A stretch of 64,000 nucleotides of DNA from Limnohabitans sp. (GTDB lineage Bacteria; Pseudomonadota; Gammaproteobacteria; Burkholderiales; Burkholderiaceae_C): NCBI RefSeq assembly GCF_031538885.1, contig NZ_JAVKLW010000053.1:25158-89157 (forward strand), written 5' to 3'. The notes under the pieces are model-generated. The model ran no database searches. It was not told where the DNA came from and saw only the letters and a list, made by a program, of their open reading frames with translations. The position numbers and the translations under genes were made by a program. Positions 1,332-54,942 of the stretch are shown piece by piece. How positions within the stretch are numbered: the first letter of the stretch is position 1; each line of letters starts with the position of its first letter.

Positions 1332-4045
1332 TGGAACTCAAAGACTACCAAGCCGACGTGCTCAGCGACCTGAGCACGTACCTGCAAACCCTGCTGGATT
1401 GCAAAGGCCATTTAGGCAAAGCCTTCACCACCTACTGGCAAAACCGTGGTGTGCTGAACCAAGTCTATAAGAACAACGTTCAGGAGGTGCCCCATGTTTG
1501 CGTGAAGGTGCCCACGGCAGGTGGCAAAACCTTCATTGCCGTCAACGCCTTGGAGCGAGTATTTACCGCCTTTGCCGAGTACAACCCCAGCCGCCCGAAG
1601 TTTGTGGTGTGGCTGGTGCCGTCGCTCACTATTCTTGAGCAAACGGTGAAGAACCTTGCCAACATCGACCACCCTTATCGTCAGCGGCTGAACGACTTGT
1701 TTCAAGGCCGTGTACAGGTGTACGAAAAAACCGACGTGTTGCAAGGCGCAGGGTTCAACGCCGACACGGTGCGCGAACAGTTGTCCGTGGTTGTGATGTC
1801 GTTTGATTCACTCAAAGCCAGCAACAAAGAAAACCGCAAGGCCTATCAAGAGAACGGCTACTTGGCTTCGTTTTTGAACGACAGCACCCACGATGCGGTG
1901 TTGCTGCCAGAGTTCGACAAGTCTTCTTTGATCAATGTGATCCGCACCTTGAACCCCGTGGTGGTGGTGGACGAGAGCCACAACGCTGAGAGCACTTTGT
2001 CGGTGGACATGCTGCGCAATCTGAATCCGAGTTTCATTTTTGACCTGACGGCCACGCCGCGTGAGAACAGCAACATCATTAGCTACGTAGACGCATTGCG
2101 CCTGAAAAAGCAAGACATGGTGAAGCTGCCTGTAATTGTGGCCAATCAGCACAGCCAAGAAGAGGTGATCATGGCCGCGCTGAATATGCGCCGCCAGTTA
2201 GAGGTGTTGGCCGTCCAGGCTGAGGCCAACGGTGGTGGCTACATCCGCCCGATTGTGTTGTTCCAGGCCGAACCGAAGAGCCGCGACGACAACACCACGT
2301 TTGAAAAAGTCAAACAAGTGTTGCTTGATCTGAATATTCCGCCCGAGCACATTGCCATCAAGACGGCCAACGTCAACGAGTTGAAAGGCGTGGACTTATT
2401 GGATCGCCATTGCCAGATTCGCTACATCATTACCGTCAACGCCTTGAAAGAAGGCTGGGACTGCCCGTTTGCCTACGTGCTGGCAACGCTGGCAAACAAA
2501 TCCTCCGTGGTGGACGTGACGCAGATTTTGGGGCGCGTGTTGCGTATGCCTTACACCGCCAAGCACAGCGCCGAATTATTGAATCTGAGTTATGTGTTCA
2601 CGGCATCCAACCAGTTTCAGAGCACTTTGGGCAAGGTGGTGGCGGGCTTGAACAAGGCGGGTTTTTCCAAGCGTGATTATCGCGAGGTGGATATGTCTGC
2701 CATGCCTGTGGCAATGGATACGGGCAAAACAGGTGCCCAGCAGGGCGACTTGTTGGCCCCAGCAAATCAAGAGCCAGTAGCGCCAAGCGCAGGCGAGGTG
2801 GCGGTAGACCCCTCCAAACTCAATCCGAACTGGGAAGCCGAAGCGGTACAGCACGCCGAGAACTCAGGCGACGGTGCCGCCACAGAAGCCGCCCCCGCAG
2901 ATGCCACAGGCGTGGAAAGCATCAAGGCGCAGGCTATTGCCCAAGCGCAGGCGTTTGAAGCAGAGGCCGCTCAGGCTGAGGGAGACAGTTGCCCAGATGA
3001 ATTGAAGGCGGACATGAACGAACACAAAATGAAGCCGATGTTTGAAGCATCCGCGCAGGCCATTGAGTTGCCGCAGTTTTTTCTGAAACTTCCCAAAGAA
3101 GGCGGCTTCTTTGAATCCAGCGACTTCAATGGCGATGAGTGGCACAAACTTGCCAAAGAAAATTTGTTGACCGATTTTGTTCTTGCCAATCTGGATGCCA
3201 CGGTCAACTTTTCAGCCATTGATGCGGACGTGTATTCCGTCGATGCGGAAGTTGTCGGCGAGGGCGAAAGCGCCCCAGCGTTCAAGGCGGTGAAGAAGGC
3301 CGAGAAGGAAAAACTCAATCACATCATCAAAAGCCAGCTACCGTCAGGGCAGGTGATGTCCATCGTGGCGCGGTTGTTCAGCCTAATCGGCAAGAACACC
3401 TTCTACCCCATCGAAGACAACGACATCAAGAAGTACCTCACGCGCATCGTGGAGGTGATGAGTGCCGAGCAACGTGCCGACTGCCTTGAGCGCGACTATG
3501 CCTATGTGAAGGCCATTAAAGACAAGATTCAGAGTTTGGCAAACGAGTTCGCCGCCAAAGAGTTCAACAACTGGCTGACCACGCAGAAGGTGAAATTGCA
3601 GCCGAGCTTTGTGTTGCCCGCAAGCATTACGCCCAGCGACAACGGGCCTGCCATTATCAAAAGCCTGTATCTCACCGAACGCGGTATGAATGGGCTGGAA
3701 GCGCCTGTTATTGGCAAGGTGGCTCAGCTTGAAAACGTGGAGTGGTGGCACTGCAATCTGGAACGAAGCAAGGGCTTTTGCATCAATGGCTTCGTCAACC
3801 ATTACCCCGACTTCATTGTCCTGACCGCCAGCAAAAACATCGTGGTCATTGAAACCAAAGGCGACGACCGCGACAACTCCAATTCAAAAGACAAATTGAA
3901 ACTGGGAAAAATCTGGGAAGCACAGGCCAACCAGATCGCGCACGAAACAGGCTACCGCTACCACTACATGATGGTGTTTGAGAGCAACCCGATTGACGGG
4001 GCTTTGGTGGTGGGGGATGCGTTGAAGTTGGTTGAAAATCTTTAA
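1331..4045 (+). CDS. res: Type III restriction endonuclease Res subunit (SF2 helicase plus PD-(D/E)XK nuclease)
   Basis: Walker A VKVPTAGGKT, Walker B VVVDESH, LKEGWDCP, QILGRVLR, C-terminal YPDF..IETKG. Confidence 0.92.
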   Translation: MELKDYQADVLSDLSTYLQTLLDCKGHLGKAFTTYWQNRGVLNQVYKNNVQEVPHVCVKVPTAGGKTFIAVNALERVFTAFAEYNPSRPKFVVWLVPSLTILEQTVKNLANIDHPYRQRLNDLFQGRVQVYEKTDVLQGAGFNADTVREQLSVVVMSFDSLKASNKENRKAYQENGYLASFLNDSTHDAVLLPEFDKSSLINVIRTLNPVVVVDESHNAESTLSVDMLRNLNPSFIFDLTATPRENSNIISYVDALRLKKQDMVKLPVIVANQHSQEEVIMAALNMRRQLEVLAVQAEANGGGYIRPIVLFQAEPKSRDDNTTFEKVKQVLLDLNIPPEHIAIKTANVNELKGVDLLDRHCQIRYIITVNALKEGWDCPFAYVLATLANKSSVVDVTQILGRVLRMPYTAKHSAELLNLSYVFTASNQFQSTLGKVVAGLNKAGFSKRDYREVDMSAMPVAMDTGKTGAQQGDLLAPANQEPVAPSAGEVAVDPSKLNPNWEAEAVQHAENSGDGAATEAAPADATGVESIKAQAIAQAQAFEAEAAQAEGDSCPDELKADMNEHKMKPMFEASAQAIELPQFFLKLPKEGGFFESSDFNGDEWHKLAKENLLTDFVLANLDATVNFSAIDADVYSVDAEVVGEGESAPAFKAVKKAEKEKLNHIIKSQLPSGQVMSIVARLFSLIGKNTFYPIEDNDIKKYLTRIVEVMSAEQRADCLERDYAYVKAIKDKIQSLANEFAAKEFNNWLTTQKVKLQPSFVLPASITPSDNGPAIIKSLYLTERGMNGLEAPVIGKVAQLENVEWWHCNLERSKGFCINGFVNHYPDFIVLTASKNIVVIETKGDDRDNSNSKDKLKLGKIWEAQANQIAHETGYRYHYMMVFESNPIDGALVVGDALKLVENL

Positions 4046-5544: not shown

Positions 5545-6413
5545 GCGACGAGCTTGAAGTGCTTGCGACTGAAATCCAAACCAAACGCTTTCTCTAGCTT
5601 CATCAACCAGCGATGCCGCTTTTCACGTTTTGTGAGTTCGTAGTTCGGGTCAATCGTGAAGCTTTTTTCTGCCGAGCTTTCCAGCCAAGGCTTGACCAGT
5701 TCTGGGTGTGTGCCTGTGAAGGCTTGCAATACCTGCGCATCGAACTGGTTGTAGCGAATGGTGGGCGCACCATGCGACCAAAACTTACTCACTTGGTCAA
5801 GCTTTTTTTGCATCGCTTCGTTGCTGCGCACCCAGCCGTAGTGGTAGATGTGCGCGTTGGCCAACGCGGCTTGTGGGTTGCGGCCTTTTTTGTGATCGGA
5901 CGTGATCAACCAATACTGGCCGTCCGGCGCGTACGAGCGGATGGTGTTGCGAATCAGGCGACACTCACGGCGGTACCATGCGGGGCTGTTGGCGACAAAC
6001 TCGGGCGTACCGTAAAAGTGAAAGTAGTCAAACACCAAGGCTTCTACCGCGGGGTTGCTGTGGTGCTTGTCCACGCTGGCGCGGATGTTGGCCAACTCAG
6101 CTTCGTGCACCACCTCGTCACCCTCCAAATAAAATGCCCAGTCCCCCGTGCAGGCGTATTGCGCGATCATTTTTTGTTGGGCGTAGACAAAGCCGCGGTC
6201 GGCCATGCGTTCGTTCCAGATGGTTTCAATCACGCGAATCTTGGGCGAGCCGATCGCGTGGATACGCGCGAGCGTGTCGTCGTTGCCTTTGCCGACCGCC
6301 ACCACAAACTCATCCACCAAAAGCAGCATTGAGCGAATGGAGGCTTCGAACGGAAAGCCTAATTCGACGCCGTTGCGAATGAAGGTGAAACCGCTGATGG
6401 ATGCTTGGCTCAT
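5541..6413 (-). CDS. Glycosyltransferase family 2 (probably LPS-related)
   Basis: ISGFTFIRNG, SDD-like GNDDT, WAFYLEGDEVVHE, HIYHYGWVR; downstream of msbA. Confidence 0.8.
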   Translation of the reverse strand: MSQASISGFTFIRNGVELGFPFEASIRSMLLLVDEFVVAVGKGNDDTLARIHAIGSPKIRVIETIWNERMADRGFVYAQQKMIAQYACTGDWAFYLEGDEVVHEAELANIRASVDKHHSNPAVEALVFDYFHFYGTPEFVANSPAWYRRECRLIRNTIRSYAPDGQYWLITSDHKKGRNPQAALANAHIYHYGWVRSNEAMQKKLDQVSKFWSHGAPTIRYNQFDAQVLQAFTGTHPELVKPWLESSAEKSFTIDPNYELTKREKRHRWLMKLEKAFGLDFSRKHFKLVA

Positions 6414-6434
6414 AAAGTACTCAGATGAAGGTGC

Positions 6435-9683: not shown

Positions 9684-12600
9684 ATGCCTAAGCGCACCGA
9701 CCTAAAAAGCATTCTCATCATTGGCGCAGGCCCGATCATCATTGGTCAGGCCTGCGAATTTGATTACTCTGGCGTGCAAGCTTGCAAAGCTTTGCGTGAA
9801 GAGGGCTACAAGGTCATCTTGATCAACAGCAACCCAGCCACGATCATGACCGACCCTGCCACGGCCGACGTCACCTACATCGAGCCCATCACGTGGCAAA
9901 CGGTGGAGAGGATCATTGCCAAAGAGCGTCCCGACGCCATCTTGCCTACGATGGGCGGCCAAACTGCGCTCAATTGTGCGTTGGACTTGTGGCACCACGG
10001 CGTGCTGGCCAAGTACAAGGTGGAGCTGATTGGCGCCACGCCTGAGGCCATCGACAAAGCCGAAGACCGCTTGAAGTTCAAAGACGCCATGACCAAGATT
10101 GGTTTGGGTTCTGCGCGTTCAGGCATTGCGCACAGCATGGGTGAGGCTTGGGATGTGCAAAAAAGTTTGGGCTTCCCCACCGTCATTCGCCCCAGCTTCA
10201 CGCTGGGTGGCACGGGTGGCGGCATTGCCTACAACCCCGAAGAGTTTGAAATCATCTGCAAGCGCGGTTTGGAAGCTTCGCCCACCAACGAGTTGTTGAT
10301 TGAAGAATCTTTGCTCGGCTGGAAAGAGTACGAGATGGAAGTGGTGCGCGACAAGGCGGACAACTGCATCATCGTTTGCTCGATCGAAAACTTGGACCCG
10401 ATGGGCGTGCACACGGGCGACTCCATCACCGTGGCTCCTGCGCAAACCTTGACTGACAAGGAGTACCAAATCTTGCGTAACGCCTCATTGGCGGTGTTGC
10501 GCGAAATCGGTGTGGACACAGGCGGCTCAAACGTGCAGTTCTCCATCAACCCCAAAGATGGCCGCATGGTGGTCATTGAGATGAATCCACGCGTGTCGCG
10601 CTCATCTGCGTTGGCTTCCAAAGCCACGGGTTTCCCGATTGCCAAAGTCGCCGCCAAGTTGGCGGTGGGTTACACCCTCGACGAGCTGCGCAACGACATC
10701 ACGGGCGGTGCAACGCCTGCGTCGTTCGAACCCTCGATTGACTACGTCGTCACCAAGATTCCACGTTTCGCGTTTGAAAAATTCCCAACGGCTGACAGCC
10801 GCTTGACCACCCAAATGAAATCGGTGGGCGAGGTGATGGCCATGGGCCGCACTTTCCAAGAGTCCTTCCAAAAAGCTTTGCGCGGTTTGGAAGTGGGCGT
10901 GGACGGCATGAACGAAAAAACCCAAGACCGCGAAGTGCTGGAAAAAGAACTGGGTGAGCCTGGTCCCGAGCGCATTTGGTACGTGGGCGATGCCTTCGCC
11001 ATGGGCCTGAGTGTGGACGAGGTGTGTGCGCTGACCAAGATCGACCCTTGGTTCTTGGTGCAAATCGAAGAGATCGTGAAGATTGAGCTGGAACTCGAAA
11101 CCACCTCACTCGACGTCATCGCTGCCCATGAGTTGCGTGCTTTGAAAAAGAAGGGCTTCTCCGACCGCCGTTTGGCCAAGTTGCTCAAGACCACCGAGCA
11201 TGTGGTGCGCGCACGTCGCCATGAACTCAACATTCGCCCCGTCTACAAGCGCGTGGACACCTGTGCGGCCGAGTTCTCGACCGATACCGCTTACATGTAC
11301 TCCTGCTACGAAGGCAACGGCGATGCTTTCGGCATGGGCAACGGCGAATGTGAGGCCGACCCCACGAACAACAAAAAAATCATGGTGCTCGGCGGCGGTC
11401 CTAATCGCATTGGCCAAGGCATTGAGTTTGACTACTGCTGCGTTCACGCCGCACTCGCCATGCGCGAAGACGGCTATGAAACCATCATGGTCAACTGCAA
11501 CCCAGAGACCGTGTCCACCGACTACGACACCTCGGACCGTTTGTACTTTGAGCCTTTGACGCTCGAAGACGTGCTCGAGATCGTCGCCAAAGAAAAGCCC
11601 ACGGGCGTGATCGTGCAATACGGCGGTCAAACGCCTTTGAAGTTGGCGCTCGGCTTGGAGGCGGCGGGCGTGCCCATTATCGGCACCAGCCCAGACATGA
11701 TTGATGCAGCCGAAGACCGTGAGCGTTTCCAAAAGTTGTTGCAAAACCTCGGCCTGCGTCAACCGCCGAACGCCACGGCCCGTACCGAACCAGAAGCTTT
11801 GGAAAAAGCAGCCGCCTTGGGCTATCCCCTCGTGGTGCGTCCCAGCTATGTGTTGGGTGGCCGCGCCATGGAAATCGTGCACGAACAACGCGACTTAGAG
11901 CGCTACATGCGCGAAGCGGTCAAGGTGTCGCACGACTCGCCTGTGTTGCTCGACCGTTTCTTGAACGATGCGATTGAGTGTGATGTGGATTGCCTGCGTG
12001 ACCCCGAAGGCAAGACCTTCATTGGTGGCGTGATGGAGCACATCGAACAAGCCGGCGTGCACAGCGGTGACTCGGCTTGCTCATTGCCGCCTTACTCTTT
12101 GTCCGCTGAAACAGTGGCTGAACTCAAGCGTCAATCTGCCGCGATGGCCGGTGCGTTGAACGTGGTCGGTTTGATGAATGTGCAGTTCGCGATTCAACAC
12201 GTGGACGGCAAAGACGTCATCTATGTGCTGGAAGTCAACCCACGCGCCTCACGCACTGTTCCTTACGTGTCTAAAGCCACGGGCATTCAATTGGCCAAGG
12301 TTGCTGCACGTTGTATGGCGGGTCAAACCCTCGCCTCACAAGGCATCACCCAAGAAGTCACGCCACCTTATTTCAGTGTGAAAGAAGCGGTGTTCCCCTT
12401 CGTGAAGTTCCCTGGCGTGGACACCATCCTTGGCCCAGAGATGAAGTCCACTGGCGAAGTCATGGGTGTGGGCAAAACATTTGGCGAAGCCTTTGTGAAG
12501 AGCCAATTGGGCGCAGGCACCAAATTGCCTCGTCCACGTGATGCCGATGGTCGATCCACCGGCAAAGTGTTCATTTCGGTGAAGAACAACGACAAGCCAC

Positions 12601-47277: not shown

Positions 47278-47313
47278 AACGGGTTAGCTGTAAAAGGCTA
47301 ACCCGTTTTTCTT
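47278..47313 (+). terminator. Terminator after tRNA-Asp
   Basis: AACGGGTTAGC-TGTAAAAG-GCTAACCCGTT followed by Ts. Confidence 0.8.
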
Positions 47314-51363: not shown

Positions 51364-52150
51364 GAGCTTTGCACTCCTTAAAAATTGGGCAGTACCGCTC
51401 ATGACAAAGCATTGACTTTGGATTCGGATAAAACGATCCTGAATGAATTAACCTTGATGCGTGTTCCAAGATGCCAGGCGACTCGCCGTCGCCCAGGAGC
51501 ACAGAACGAGCGTCCGAGATTTCGCCAGTGCCCACGCGCTGCGACGCTGGTGTTTTGGCGGTATTCATGCCGATGATTTGCGCCGCGCCCGTGATTGGCA
51601 CGCCGCTGGCTTGTTCGGCGAGCAGCTCGTACACTCCCATTTGGTAGGCGTGGCCTGCGGTTTTGACGTTGCCGTCTGACCCAACGGCGGCTTTGCCCGT
51701 CTTGAGGTCACAGATAGCCAAGCCGTCGGCGGTTTCACGCACGCGGTCTGTTGTGCCCGTGAGCGCAATGCCGAGGTCGGTGATTTCCAAGCGCTCGCAC
51801 TTGATTTCAACGCCGCGATAGGTTTGCTTCGGGGCGATGATTTGGCAGTACTTGACGTGCAAGGAAAGGGCAATCTTCTCGGCATCCTGCGGCGTGTCGT
51901 CTTCCCAAACCACGTCCTCGTCGGGGCGGTGGATGGTGTCAACGGCTGCGGCTGCGGCCTCGTCGATTGAAATGCCTGTGCCGTCAATGCCCGACTGGTC
52001 GAACACAGCGGTGCTGGCGTGTACGGCTTTGCCAAGCATGGCTTTACCGTTTGACGGAGTGCGTTTCCCGTCTATGTGGGTGGCTGCCCATGCCGCAGGG
52101 CAGTCAAAGAGCCTGCCGAGGCTTGAGGCGCGAATGGTGACAATGTTCAC
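51356..52150 (-). CDS. PD-(D/E)XK exonuclease (RecB/Cas4-like)
   Basis: SSL..LFDCP, GKAVH, GTTDRV, DLKTG, QMGVY, C-terminal CHERYCPIFKEC. Confidence 0.85.
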   Translation of the reverse strand: MNIVTIRASSLGRLFDCPAAWAATHIDGKRTPSNGKAMLGKAVHASTAVFDQSGIDGTGISIDEAAAAAVDTIHRPDEDVVWEDDTPQDAEKIALSLHVKYCQIIAPKQTYRGVEIKCERLEITDLGIALTGTTDRVRETADGLAICDLKTGKAAVGSDGNVKTAGHAYQMGVYELLAEQASGVPITGAAQIIGMNTAKTPASQRVGTGEISDARSVLLGDGESPGILEHASRLIHSGSFYPNPKSMLCHERYCPIFKECKAHA

Positions 52151-52175
52151 TTGGGCTTCTTTTCAGGGTGGTGGT

Positions 52176-52274
52176 TTAGTAGGTGCGGCGCATGGTTCGC
52201 CATGCTTGGGCGATGGAGCGTCTTGGTGTGTGGCCGAAGCGGCGATAGAGGGCGTAGAGGCGGAAGAAGGTCAT
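52176..52274 (-). CDS. 32-aa basic phage ORF (MTFFRLYALYRRFGH...)
   Basis: ATGA overlap with the upstream gene; Arg/aromatic-rich peptide typical of lambdoid left-arm genes. Confidence 0.55.
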   Translation of the reverse strand: MTFFRLYALYRRFGHTPRRSIAQAWRTMRRTY

Positions 52275-52672
52275 GCCGCCATCCGAAGTGCTGATGCGTA
52301 GCTCGCGCCACGGCTGAGGGCGTCAATCACTGCATCTGATCCGCTGGCAAAAATGCCATTCCAAGAGCCGACGTTCGTTCTCACGCGAAAAGTGCGGGGC
52401 TTGTTGTGCTCCACGCACGCATCGAGCAGCCACTTCTCCTCGGCGCGGCTCAGGAGCAGGTGTGTGATTTCTTCCCACTCGGTGTCTGTTGCTGACTTGG
52501 CGAACAGGTGAGGCCAGTAGCCTTCGCGCACCATGTCTCCGTCGTCACGCGGCTCGTAGTCAAACGCGATACACAGGTCACGGTCGCCCACTACTTCGTC
52601 GAGCGAAATAGGCTGGTTGCCACTCGCGTCAAAGTGGTGTTCGTAGTCTTCGGGTTGCAGGTCATTTGCCAT
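52271..52672 (-). CDS. Hypothetical phage protein, first ORF of the pL operon
   Basis: Open frame with GGAG RBS before GTG/ATG. Confidence 0.6.
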   Translation of the reverse strand: MANDLQPEDYEHHFDASGNQPISLDEVVGDRDLCIAFDYEPRDDGDMVREGYWPHLFAKSATDTEWEEITHLLLSRAEEKWLLDACVEHNKPRTFRVRTNVGSWNGIFASGSDAVIDALSRGASYASALRMAA

Positions 52673-52696
52673 CACGCGCTCCATTGGGTAAAACGT

Positions 52697-53055
52697 GCAG
52701 CACTTTGATCTGACCTCATCCCCTCAGACATAGCGGGGCGGTCTATCTGGTCGGTTGAAAAAACGCTCATCCTCGGTGGATGGGGTCAGATCAAAGCACT
52801 GCTCCTTGAGAGTGATTCGGTGGGCGCTACATCCGCGCTTTGCCACCCTTTGCCCCGCCACACGCCATTCGTAAATGTGCGTAACAGTCGCTTGGACTCA
52901 CGCTTCGCGCGGCATAGCGCCCACCGAATCACTCTCTACGCTGCAAACCTTGTGCGTCGCATAGAGAGAGCCAGTCGCGCTGGGTTGCATCTATGCTGGG
53001 TAGGCCATGCCCTTGGCCGCTTACTCTGACTTTGAGCAATCCCTCCGTCAGAACC
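52697..53055 (-). ncRNA. Candidate structured RNA leader of the pL transcript
   Basis: 25-bp and ~30-bp stems plus smaller hairpins; most imperfections are G-U pairs only on the minus strand; no convincing ORF. Confidence 0.6.
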
Positions 53056-53082
53056 GTGTCGCTGTTTTGTTGCGATGGATGT

Positions 53083-53126
53083 AATGTAGCAAAGATAAAC
53101 AATTAAGTCAATAGCAAAAGATAAAT
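53083..53126 (-). promoter_or_regulatory. pL promoter with repressor operators
   Basis: TTGACT(53111-53106)-17-TACATT(53088-53083); TTTATCTTT(T)GCTA present twice. Confidence 0.8.
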
Positions 53127-53183
53127 TATTTGCAAGAATGCGGGTAAACCTCTAGGTCTAGGCGTAAAAAACCGCCTTTCTAC

Positions 53184-53202
53184 TACGCTTAAAGCGTATA
53201 AT
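53184..53202 (+). promoter_or_regulatory. -10 box with overlapping palindromic operator of the DUF4258 operon
   Basis: TACGCTT-A-AAGCGTA overlaps TATAAT (53197-53202), 7 nt before the ATG. Confidence 0.65.
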
Positions 53203-53209
53203 TGATTTC

Positions 53210-53464
53210 ATGCAAGTCACTTACACCCAACACGCACTGACCCGTATGGCCGAGCGTGGCATTAGCAAACAAGAGGTCGAATGCGCATTGGCTCAACCCA
53301 TCCGTACCGTTGCGGCACAAAATGGGCGCACAGAATCGCAAGGCTGGATTGAGCGCTTAGGCAAACGGCAGTTGCTTCGGGTGTTGACTGAGAGCGGTGT
53401 GGTGGTGTTGGTGGTCACCGTGATGGCGACTAGCAAGTTTGAAAAATACGGAGTTCAACCATGA
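53210..53464 (+). CDS. DUF4258 protein (putative RNase toxin)
   Basis: YTQHALTRMAERGIS..EV, LRVL, VVTVM. Confidence 0.85.
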   Translation: MQVTYTQHALTRMAERGISKQEVECALAQPIRTVAAQNGRTESQGWIERLGKRQLLRVLTESGVVVLVVTVMATSKFEKYGVQP

Positions 53465-53661
53465 AAATCGAATATGACCAACAGGCCGATGCTATGTACA
53501 TCCGTCTACGCATGGGCACCGTGGCTGAGAGTGACGAGGTACGCCCAGGCGTGGTGCTTGACTTTGATGCGTTAGGCCGCGTGCTAGGCATTGAAATGCT
53601 TGACGTGAGCCAACGCACCGACAACCCGCGCGAGCTGGCCATGGAGCTGGTCGGTGCCTGA
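53461..53661 (+). CDS. DUF2283 protein (putative antitoxin)
   Basis: MKIEYD..ADAMYIRL, GVVLDFD..GRVLGIEML. Confidence 0.9.
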   Translation: MKIEYDQQADAMYIRLRMGTVAESDEVRPGVVLDFDALGRVLGIEMLDVSQRTDNPRELAMELVGA

Positions 53662-53872
53662 TGCACTACTCACCACCCGCGTGGGGGCGGCTGAACTGAG
53701 AGCATCGAGGGCCATGACAGGCATGTCGCAGGCTGAGTTTGCCAACGCTTGCCGCGTATCTGTGCGTACGCTGCAAGAGTGGGAGCAGGGGCGCAAAGTG
53801 CCAAGCGGTGCAGCACAAAGCCTGCTGAAGCTGGTCAGCCGTCACCCCGAGTTGTTGGCCGAGTTGGCGTAA
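53654..53872 (+). CDS. XRE-family HTH protein (YiaG/MqsA C-terminal-like)
   Basis: MSQAEFA..VSVRTLQEWEQGR..PSGAA..LL; GGAG RBS, 8-nt overlap with DUF2283. Confidence 0.85.
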   Translation: MPDALLTTRVGAAELRASRAMTGMSQAEFANACRVSVRTLQEWEQGRKVPSGAAQSLLKLVSRHPELLAELA

Positions 53873-53917
53873 AAACCGCACTTGGCAGGTTTGTCCTAGT
53901 CTCGCTGCATTGTTAAA

Positions 53918-54120
53918 AACGATAAAGGAGAGTGGAAATGAACATGACTGACGTGATAGCTCCGTGGGCGGCCGTCAATGCGGCCTTGGGTTTGGCTGCC
54001 CCAGTGCGTGACGAAGCCCACCACGCCGAGTTGCTGGCTTTTGTGGCCGACTGTTTCGAGCAGTTTGGGGCAGATTAAGAGCACCCTATTTTTTCTTTGG
54101 TTGGGGTGGTGGCGCGTCGG
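53918..54120 (+). pseudogene. higBA remnant: last higB codons plus truncated higA with a premature stop
   Basis: NDKGEWK* overlapping ATG 53938; MNMTDV..PVRDEAHHAELLAFV..GAD*EHPIFSLVGVVA. Confidence 0.65.
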
Positions 54121-54414
54121 TTTGGGTTGAAGGCTGACAAAAGTCCATTCGGTAGTGCCGTCAATCGGAGCTTGCATAAAGGCACAGGCTGGCTGCGGTA
54201 TGGCAAGCGCAGACATGGCGGTGTAGCCGAACCATTCGTTGAACAAGCCGCGCGGCGCAGATGTAGGAAAGTGCTTGACGTAGCCCCTACAAAGCTCACC
54301 CGTTGGCGACATCAATTGCGCTAGGTGGGTGAAGGCACGAGCGCCACCATGTTGCTGCTGGATTTTTCTAACGTAACAAGTTGAAGGCCAGATTTGCGGC
54401 GCTTTGAGAGGCAT
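54121..54414 (-). pseudogene. HipA-like kinase, N-terminal fragment only
   Basis: THLA..GELCRGYVKHF..RGLFNEWFGY..MSALAIPQP; similarity stops at the junction with the higA remnant. Confidence 0.6.
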
Positions 54415-54420
54415 CTATTT

Positions 54421-54876
54421 TTAAAAAGTGGGGGTGGATTGATCGACTTTGCCAGTCGGCGGCTTGCCCGCGAAGGCTGCTGTCTCGGTGGCTGGGTGGG
54501 CGGGCGTGTTTCCAGCGCTGCCTAGCACCTCTAGGATGTCTTGTTTGGTGGTTTGGCGCAGCCCCACGACGAAGATGGATAGTAGGCTTGCAGCTTCTTT
54601 GCGCTGCTCATGGCCCAGCTTCTCGCAGGCAGTCTCGATCACGTCTAGCGCCCCGGACACCGTAGGTGCAGCCCCCGCACTGCTGACGTTGCCAGATTCG
54701 GGGCGCATGGGGCCAAACCTTATCGCAATGTCTCGTTCAATCTTTGCCCCTATTGGTCTTTTTGCAGCGAGCCACTGATTGACCTGTGATGGAGACTTTC
54801 CAAGCATGAGCGCAAAGCGGGCTTGGCTGCCCTCTGCGTGCTTGTCTATCAGTTTTTTGAGCTGCTCAATTTTCAT
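54421..54876 (-). CDS. CI-like prophage repressor (HTH, no S24 peptidase domain)
   Basis: GSQARFALMLGKSPSQVNQWL HTH; divergent from cro. Confidence 0.85.
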   Translation of the reverse strand: MKIEQLKKLIDKHAEGSQARFALMLGKSPSQVNQWLAAKRPIGAKIERDIAIRFGPMRPESGNVSSAGAAPTVSGALDVIETACEKLGHEQRKEAASLLSIFVVGLRQTTKQDILEVLGSAGNTPAHPATETAAFAGKPPTGKVDQSTPTF

Positions 54877-54883
54877 GATCTTC

Positions 54884-54942
54884 ACTTTAGCAAAAGTTTA
54901 TTTATCTTTGATATTGACTTTTATGTTTACTAATGCTACATT
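54884..54942. promoter_or_regulatory. pR/pRM divergent promoter-operator region
   Basis: pR TTGACT(54914-54919)-17-TACATT(54937-54942); pRM extended -10 TG-C-TAAAGT on the minus strand; operator repeats shared with pL. Confidence 0.8.

Follow-up and report, generated by a model that had tools for sequence, protein, structure and literature searches.

The window, the whole 64,000-nt stretch of Limnohabitans sp. DNA analyzed, carries a lambdoid prophage integrated beside a tRNA cluster. Two long inverted repeats, here called stems A and B, lie between the leftward promoter of this prophage and the first leftward gene. The features of the region are the following.

Minus strand: leftward genes, encoding an integrase, an excisionase-like protein, a RecT-like protein, a PD-(D/E)XK exonuclease and a 133-137-aa acidic protein of no known family.
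52271..52684, minus strand: first leftward gene, coding for the acidic product of 133-137 aa; likely start ATG at 52672, SD sequence GGAG at 52679-52682.
52697..52802, minus strand: stem B, a 25-bp hairpin whose base lies 14 nt before the SD of the first gene.
52727..52771, minus strand: apical part of stem B that is conserved, GATGAGCGTTTTTTCAACCGACCAGATAGAC..CCCCGCTATGTC; mostly unpaired in the fold.
52808..52936, minus strand: stem A, with RNA 5' arm 52936-52915 and 3' arm 52829-52808; the insert is not conserved.
52937..53080, minus strand: divergent 5' leader module, retaining CCATCGCAACAAAACAGCGA as its first 20 nt and GCACAAGGTTTGCAGCGTAG as the 3' strand of its closing helix.
52959..52968, minus strand: possible alternative hairpin partner, CUCUCUAUGC, which can pair with the base of the stem A 5' arm at 52932-52941.
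53083..53111, minus strand: pL-type promoter found by promoter scan, TTGACT-17-TACATT with an extended -10 TG.
53091-53104 and 53117-53130: repeated operator-like words flanking pL, in direct repeat.
To the right of the minus-strand genes, in order: the stems; an A+T-rich promoter region; a DUF4258/DUF2283/HTH module on the plus strand.
Further right: a cI-like repressor gene, a cro-like gene, a cII-like gene and replication genes.
54914-54942, plus strand: pR, located before cro and found by promoter scan, with hexamers identical to those of pL and the TG too.

Alignment of the pL and pR regions revealed operator-like words common to both, flanking the hexamers, and the two promoters would fit a pair controlled by a single repressor. 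Transcription from pL probably starts near 53076, giving an untranslated leader of about 400 nt up to the ATG at 52672. The placement of the stems in a leader of this size downstream of a pL-type promoter, made in an initial annotation from the letters of the DNA, is thus borne out by promoter scan and pL/pR alignment, as is its statement that no N-like gene is evident, none being found in the window by Pfam and PHROGs. The product of the first gene (P0001, 133 aa) matches no Pfam or PHROGs family, and no relative was detected in the genome_contigs search; among 5.8 billion proteins searched its sole relative is P0002, 80% identical and encoded on two Logan contigs. The lambda nut/N arrangement (boxA plus a boxB hairpin, and an arginine-rich N-like first gene) was not found: the window leader has no boxA-like word at up to 3 mismatches, and the first gene product is acidic. 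Terminator-like sites in the leftward operon of the window are not above chance. The small ORFs of 45-57 aa that overlap the stems match no PHROG and are not retained in relatives.

Two neighboring features were recorded. The DUF4258, DUF2283 and MqsA-like HTH genes (53184-53872) are oriented against pL, and the message starting from ATG 53210 may be leaderless, because TATAAT is found only 7 nt before this ATG. At 47278-47307, directly past the integrase gene and tRNA-Asp, a 12-bp hairpin occupies what we take to be the position of sib in lambda, or is perhaps a two-way terminator.

Inverted-repeat search and RNA folding confirmed both hairpins in the form in which they had been annotated. 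The arms of stem A (52808-52829 and 52915-52936) form an inverted repeat that is perfect over 22 nt, with a spacer of 85 nt; the leftward RNA folds into 24 pairs, the last two G-U, a bulged A and 6 further pairs, about 30 bp in all around 68 nt. The arms of stem B (52692-52721 and 52778-52807) measure 30 nt, are 83% complementary, and are separated by 56 nt; the folded core, 25 bp with one mismatch, consists of 19 bp, the C-A mismatch and 5 bp, and an inner hairpin lies inside the 56 nt. The 271-nt stretch reaches -138 kcal/mol on the leftward strand (z = -10.05) and -120.6 kcal/mol on the opposite strand (z = -8.08), 0 of 200 shuffles being as low in either case. No second copy of the arms of either stem was found in the window or in the 2.28-Mb genome, the whole of which contains just 8 perfect inverted repeats whose arms reach at least 18 nt with spacers of 20-200 nt, stem A among them. 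A DNA search of 60 relatives and 50,697 phage records with a 611-nt stretch returned nothing real, and neither the arm of stem A nor the loop or arms of stem B had an exact-word match in viral, genome and metagenome collections. Both stems are real and non-random, far above chance.

The leader in which the stems reside has relatives. Immediately downstream of promoters, contigs from IMG/VR, metagenomes and genomes, a Pantoea isolate included, carry the same 20 nt following the -10, CCATCGCA[A/G]CAAAACAGCGA, and a second leader word, CCCRACAGGATGCARAGGG, added twelve viral contigs. Words characteristic of these leaders are CCCRACAGGATGCARAGGG and GTAAG..CCCAGCANAGATGCA; scans for TTGCAGYGTAGAGAGTG and for AGAGTGATT..AATCACTCT gave almost exclusively chance matches. 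The family comprises about 20 distinct leaders, each made up of a 5' module of about 117 nt directly after the -10, a variable hairpin denoted P3, and a conserved ribosome-binding region, (A)UCAACC..GGAGUGAAC(G)AUG, located ahead of quite different first genes.

A covariance model of the module, R1 (117 positions, 22 pairs, helices P0, P1a, P1b and P2), scores 56-129 bits in 18 loci, and 34 bits (E 1.7e-8) on the cultured Acidovorax phage AP1. In the underlying alignment, which is model-fitted and leans towards structure, 82% of cells are paired vs. 68% in shuffles, none of 500 shuffles attains the observed score, and the paired share is 31-53% when partners are slid. Changes on both sides were observed at 16 of the 22 pairs, and at every pair in three of the four helices. 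Many G-U pairs are used in these helices. All 13 records examined have one module per phage, among them genomes with an estimated completeness of 98-100%. Rfam 15 gave nothing relevant at E up to 1 in window positions 51500-54500 or in the leaders of relatives, and the leader family, not listed by Rfam, appears to be undescribed. The initial annotation had raised the possibility of an undescribed phage ncRNA family; this holds for the leaders, their conserved element being the 5' module upstream of the stems, which that annotation had not seen.

Further features were observed in single members or subgroups. In L024, L026, L028, L031 and L034 the module loop word CCAACAGG is complementary to CCUGU(U/C)GG, running into the first-gene SD GGAG; this pairing, found in a single closely related subgroup, could mask the SD at long range. 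A further subfamily of promoter-proximal leaders, carrying ..GUAAGAACCCAGCAGAGAUGCAAAAAGGGUUG.. (L057, L062, L064 and L071), is missed by R1, and its core word resembles the variant found in the window. In L025 a tRNA (6355-6427, 67.6 bits, CCA anticodon by eye) sits at the P3 place, between the module and the ribosome-binding site of the first gene. L029 (9127-9199) and L030 (6018-6091) have the Rfam motif Burkholderiales-2 (84-87 bits) about 50 nt downstream of the module; its strand and role may need re-examination, because the Rfam model matches the strand opposite to the leader. The phage contig L010 also hosts, at 10004-10195, an Rfam RT-15 RNA (141.9 bits), a reverse-transcriptase-associated motif. 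Phage AP1 (L055, OM049504) features in 2480-3360 a promoter, the 5' module, a boxA-like GGUCUUUAACAA, a stem-A-type stalk and about 450 nt of unannotated leader, with an intrinsic terminator (3303-3342) directly before AAGGAGTGAGCATG. The AP1 GGUCUUUAACAA has one mismatch to rrn boxA, and boxA-like words are limited to long-leader relatives; an intrinsic terminator between leader and first gene is found in AP1, L030 and L032.

The module present in the window starts as in other members, CCATCGCAACAAAACAGCGA beginning 5 nt after the -10 as found in L006, L008, L010, L012, L016 and L020. Its core is a variant with the motif GTAAGC..CCCAGCATAGATGCA (53024-52986), found once in the genome. R1 scores 10.4 bits (E 0.097) on it, with just the P0 closing-helix strands aligned, vs. 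34-129 bits in members. The GCCC/GGGC pairing cannot form, and the fold of the module (150 nt) is not unusually stable (z = -0.78). This copy of the module is divergent and probably degenerate, and the leader may be partly decayed. The notion that the insert of stem A is a second copy of the module core, based on two shared words (12 nt with L006, 11 nt with L010), was rejected: R1 scores 7.3 bits (E 0.77) on the window insert, and no such copy is found in L010, L027 or L033.

Stem A begins right past the 3' strand of the closing helix, at the place of P3 in the other leaders. Its base, GAGAG/CUCUC, and its 3' flank, AAGG(AG), are matched in four relatives, whose hairpins have bases GAGAG(U/C)GAU... 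and a 3' flank AAGG or AAGU, like the window. The related hairpins are as follows.

L010, 3334-3358 with 3444-3468: stem-A-type hairpin.
AP1 (L055), 2675-2694 with 2827-2846: stem-A-type hairpin of 20 nt, with a 132-nt insert.
L027 and L033: stem-A-type hairpins at the P3 place.

Short P3 hairpins are found at the same place in L024, L026, L028, L031 and L012. In most family members P3 is short (about 10 bp) or absent, and long stalks would therefore be dispensable for the role of the leader family.

The first 20 pairs of the five long hairpins were aligned from the base. Pairing is found in 93 of 99 cells (93.9%), and 13 of the 20 positions have changed on both sides; with the partner slid by 1-2 positions, 38-51% of the cells are paired. 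Stem A and the related hairpins are homologous, rather than independent inventions, because the related 5' arms are identical to that of the window at 9-15 of 20 positions. All stem-A-type versions keep about two helical turns; the stalk of L033, broken by internal loops into 9+2+10 pairs, would be a poorer RNase III substrate. The apical inserts of the five hairpins (80-132 nt) show no mutual likeness above shuffled controls. As the inserts are unrelated, what is kept is the duplex itself, about two turns long and at a fixed place, the insert being free to vary. The anatomy of the stems, the homology and the selection for pairing are established here. Judged from place and sequence, stem A is a P3 lengthened to a duplex of at least 20-30 bp. 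Because compensating mutations have preserved its pairing in at least five phages, stem A probably functions as a double-stranded RNA element, and most likely as an RNase III cutting site. Covariation in homologues, on which the initial annotation had made its RNA reading depend, is thus found for stem A; stem B has two sequences.

A homologue of stem B is found in L006 (488-514 with 569-595; 27 nt, 96%), the nearest relative, and also in L007. In L006 the promoter is followed by a homologous leader in which stem B is present and stem A absent. At the junction, GTAGAGAGTG runs directly into CAGCGCTTTGATC in L006; in the window, 128 nt (52929-52802) separate GTAGAGAGTG from CAGTGCTTTGATC. GTAGAGAGTG corresponds to the first 10 nt of the stem A/P3 arm, and nothing more of the arm is retained in L006. 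As these 10 nt are still there, the simplest history would be that L006 lost the stem A hairpin, and not that the window gained a mobile element.

The arms of stem B in the window and L006 are identical at 18 of 19 positions each. At two positions a G-C pair of L006 corresponds to G-U in the window, L006 has a further G-C pair through an addition to both arms, and two more differences each break a pair, in one phage or the other. The apex is identical at 43 of 45 bases, in blocks of 31 nt and 12 nt, although the first gene is 79.8% identical to its L006 copy overall, and 66% at third codon positions; hence the sequence of the apex, as far as two copies tell, appears to be under constraint. The base of stem B is 14 nt from the SD in both known copies. 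Stem B seems, in these two sequences, to travel with the downstream gene and to belong to its 5' untranslated region. The AUG found in the stem B apex (52729-52731) opens a frame of 19 codons, the UGA of which overlaps the ATG at 52672 (UGAUG). In L006 the apex AUG shares the reading frame of the gene; the 19-codon frame has no SD, and its peptide is not conserved. L006 additionally features, at 234-365, a 49-nt inverted repeat (94%) covering the divergent promoters that separate the cro-like gene from the leader, with mirrored promoter/operator halves.

The initial annotation had assigned the stems to RNA of the leftward strand on the basis of G-U pairs. Four such pairs are indeed found on this strand in the window (two in the stem A extension, two in stem B) vs. 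one C-A mismatch, which on the other strand would be a G-U pair; over all family hairpins the ratio of G-U to A-C is 8 to 4, which is not significant. The L006 fold is better on the opposite strand (-71.0 vs. -64.2 kcal/mol). The RNA reading rests on context, not on the G-U count: the stalks lie between the promoter and the first gene, on the same strand; they are found downstream of a module with many G-U pairs in its helices; and other members place a tRNA (L025) or a structured RNA region (L029, L030) there. Contigs of RNA runs hold leaders of relatives, weak evidence being provided by contigs of this kind; one soil metatranscriptome covers the module at a depth of 55-84 and the sequence past it at 27, with no coverage ahead of the promoter. 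No sequencing run holding the locus or the stems of the window was found by run searches. RNA-run searches with L033 and L010 recovered the shared module core and nothing else. Contigs of RNA runs branch exactly at the module ends, and these ends are therefore mosaic joints.

The reading favored here, held tentatively, is that both stems are processing stalks of the RNase III type, located in a cis-acting leader of the pL transcript. The length at which RNase III acts (about 20 bp or more, two turns) is reached both by stem A, with 24+6 bp, and by stem B, with 19+5 bp and one mismatch, and the host has an RNase III gene (PF14622, 125 bits, G000:C25:9556-9921). The view of the stems as RNase III substrates, advanced in the initial annotation, survives in this conditional form. 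Host RNase III would cut each stem; this would detach the 5' module from the message, release the apical pieces, and create a new 5' end ahead of the ribosome-binding site of the first gene. In this way the early-left message would have its translation and lifetime set, as at the RNase III site of the lambda N leader. We infer that the leader is transcribed from pL and that RNase III cuts it, and the same goes for the direction of the effect; cleavage could either raise or lower expression, which the sequence does not tell.

The cleavage step is common to the main rival explanation, according to which the stalks deliver their apices. RNase III would here free phage-specific small RNAs acting in trans, and the slot past the 5' module would be an expression site for stable RNAs. 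In L025 the P3 slot is filled by the tRNA (67.6 bits), in L029 and L030 by the Burkholderiales-2 region, and stalks with variable inserts recall the RNase III stalks from which rRNA is released. Conservation of the stem B apex far exceeds that of the neighbor gene, and this apex is largely single-stranded and seed-like. Yet the five stem-A-type inserts have nothing in common, the window insert resembles the module core at the word level alone, and in the early transcript of either phage no complement of the stem B loop beats shuffled loops. The apical cargo proposed in the initial annotation is favored for stem B, the one stem whose apex is conserved in sequence, and disfavored for stem A, whose insert is not conserved at all and gives no sign of a conserved small RNA. 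The release of small RNAs as the function of the stalks is considered unlikely.

Less probable again is that the inserts are tolerated rather than used, extra leader sequence surviving only when folded away, where it avoids Rho loading and nuclease entry, with template-switching palindrome correction keeping the arms perfect. The absence of constraint on stem A-type inserts fits this view, as do the restriction of long stalks to a minority of members, the perfection of the stem A arms over 22 bp, and the degenerate look of the window module. Compensation at 13 of 20 positions in five diverged phages, at a fixed place and on a conserved base, is hard to attribute to tolerance, as regeneration by chance is unlikely, and the apical sequence of stem B is conserved.

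It is very improbable that the repeats act as DNA, whether by forming a cruciform, by belonging to a miniature transposable element or by serving as a recombination site where mosaic segments join. In favor of this view, the window has stem A where L006 lacks it, with sharp edges, RNA-run contigs branch at the mosaic joints, exactly at the module ends, and the G-U count is compatible with DNA. The many copies and target-site duplication by which miniature transposable elements are recognized were not found: the genome has a single copy, none was detected in 60 relatives or three public collections, and the flanks, CTCCTT and TACGCT, differ. In addition, the first 10 nt of the arm kept by L006 argue for loss, and the arms compensate at one fixed site downstream of a strand-specific RNA module.

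Hardly credible is the proposal of the initial annotation that the stems are a protein-independent antiterminator like HK022 put: an N-like gene was not found, the leader begins right at the promoter, like putL (PMC9378689), and the terminators of AP1 and L030/L032 suggest that some read-through device may exist, more likely the 5' module than the stems, but the stems, 25-30 bp long with large inserts (56-85-nt apices) and starting about 140 nt into the transcript, differ from put in size and form and are absent from most relatives, the family element is single per phage even in 98-100% complete genomes, R1 finds nothing in the HK022 immunity region, and terminator-like sites in the leftward operon of the window are no more than expected by chance.

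The tandem device that had been proposed is not upheld by the distribution of the stems, as L006 has stem B alone, AP1, L010, L027 and L033 a stem-A-type hairpin alone, and most members neither. The feature is partly explained: the long stems are lineage-specific elaborations inside an uncatalogued phage leader RNA family. Should a read-through device exist in this family, the candidate for it would be the 5' module, rather than the stems. A wider proposal, possible but doubtful, is that the leaders represent an undescribed phage RNA system, in which a multi-helix RNA of about 117 nt, made first from the early leftward promoter and once per phage (hosts including Paracidovorax and Pantoea), would act on the transcribing or translating machinery, for example by reading through terminators in AP1 and L030. 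This RNA would be coupled to a P3 'slot' loaded with RNase III-bounded passengers, such as long stalks with private inserts, a tRNA or the Burkholderiales-2 motif.

To our knowledge, early-operon control in temperate phages outside the enterobacterial models is largely unknown, and many of these phages are without N. Starting from this locus, we arrive at a conserved structured RNA, not present in Rfam, with which the early-left transcript of about 20 phages opens, and, after the module, at a variable hairpin in which a long duplex has been kept by compensatory change in five phages. AP1 is cultured, and the role of the leader RNA is therefore directly testable. Should the stalks be RNase III sites, they would provide a new example of the control of phage early genes by a host nuclease; should the slot deliver passenger RNAs, it would be a new way for phages to carry small RNAs.

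Several known systems can be compared with the stems. Stem A, a piece of about 130 bp with 22-nt perfect terminal inverted repeats that would be an RNase III substrate if transcribed, recalls miniature inverted-repeat elements of the Correia type found in Betaproteobacteria. Unlike these elements, stem A is single copy, has no target duplication, is found at a fixed homologous site in five phages, and has arms that compensate. DicF of Qin and the P4 CI and P1 C4 RNAs are small RNAs cut by host nucleases from the transcript of an early or immunity operon. They differ from the apical pieces described here, as no Rfam match to C4 or DicF and no target complementarity were found, and stem A inserts are not conserved. 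The put RNA of about 70 nt folds into two short irregular stem-loops from the 5' end of the transcript, and is made after both PL and PR (PMC9378689). Like the leader of the window, HK022 put is a cis-acting structured RNA starting at the pL start in a lambdoid phage without N; unlike it, put is V-shaped, about 70 nt long and present in two copies (putL and putR), and the long stems of the window have no counterpart in put.

Closer to the stems are stalks cut by RNase III. In rRNA operons, RNase III stalks release rRNA, and both these and the R sites of the phage T7 early region share with the stems a duplex of about two turns that is formed by the sequences on either side of an insert, is kept by compensation, and encloses RNAs which differ. 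In contrast, the inserts found here are short (50-130 nt) and unrelated between phages, and the stalk is located in a leader, not in an intergenic region. In the lambda N leader, an RNase III site is found between nutL and the N ribosome-binding site, and cleavage parts the upstream regulatory RNA element from the message and alters translation. The window has neither N nor nut, its stems are longer and more perfect, one with an 85-nt insert, there is no sequence likeness, and cleavage is here a predicted step; yet both phages have a long hairpin in the untranslated leader of pL, shortly before the first-gene SD.
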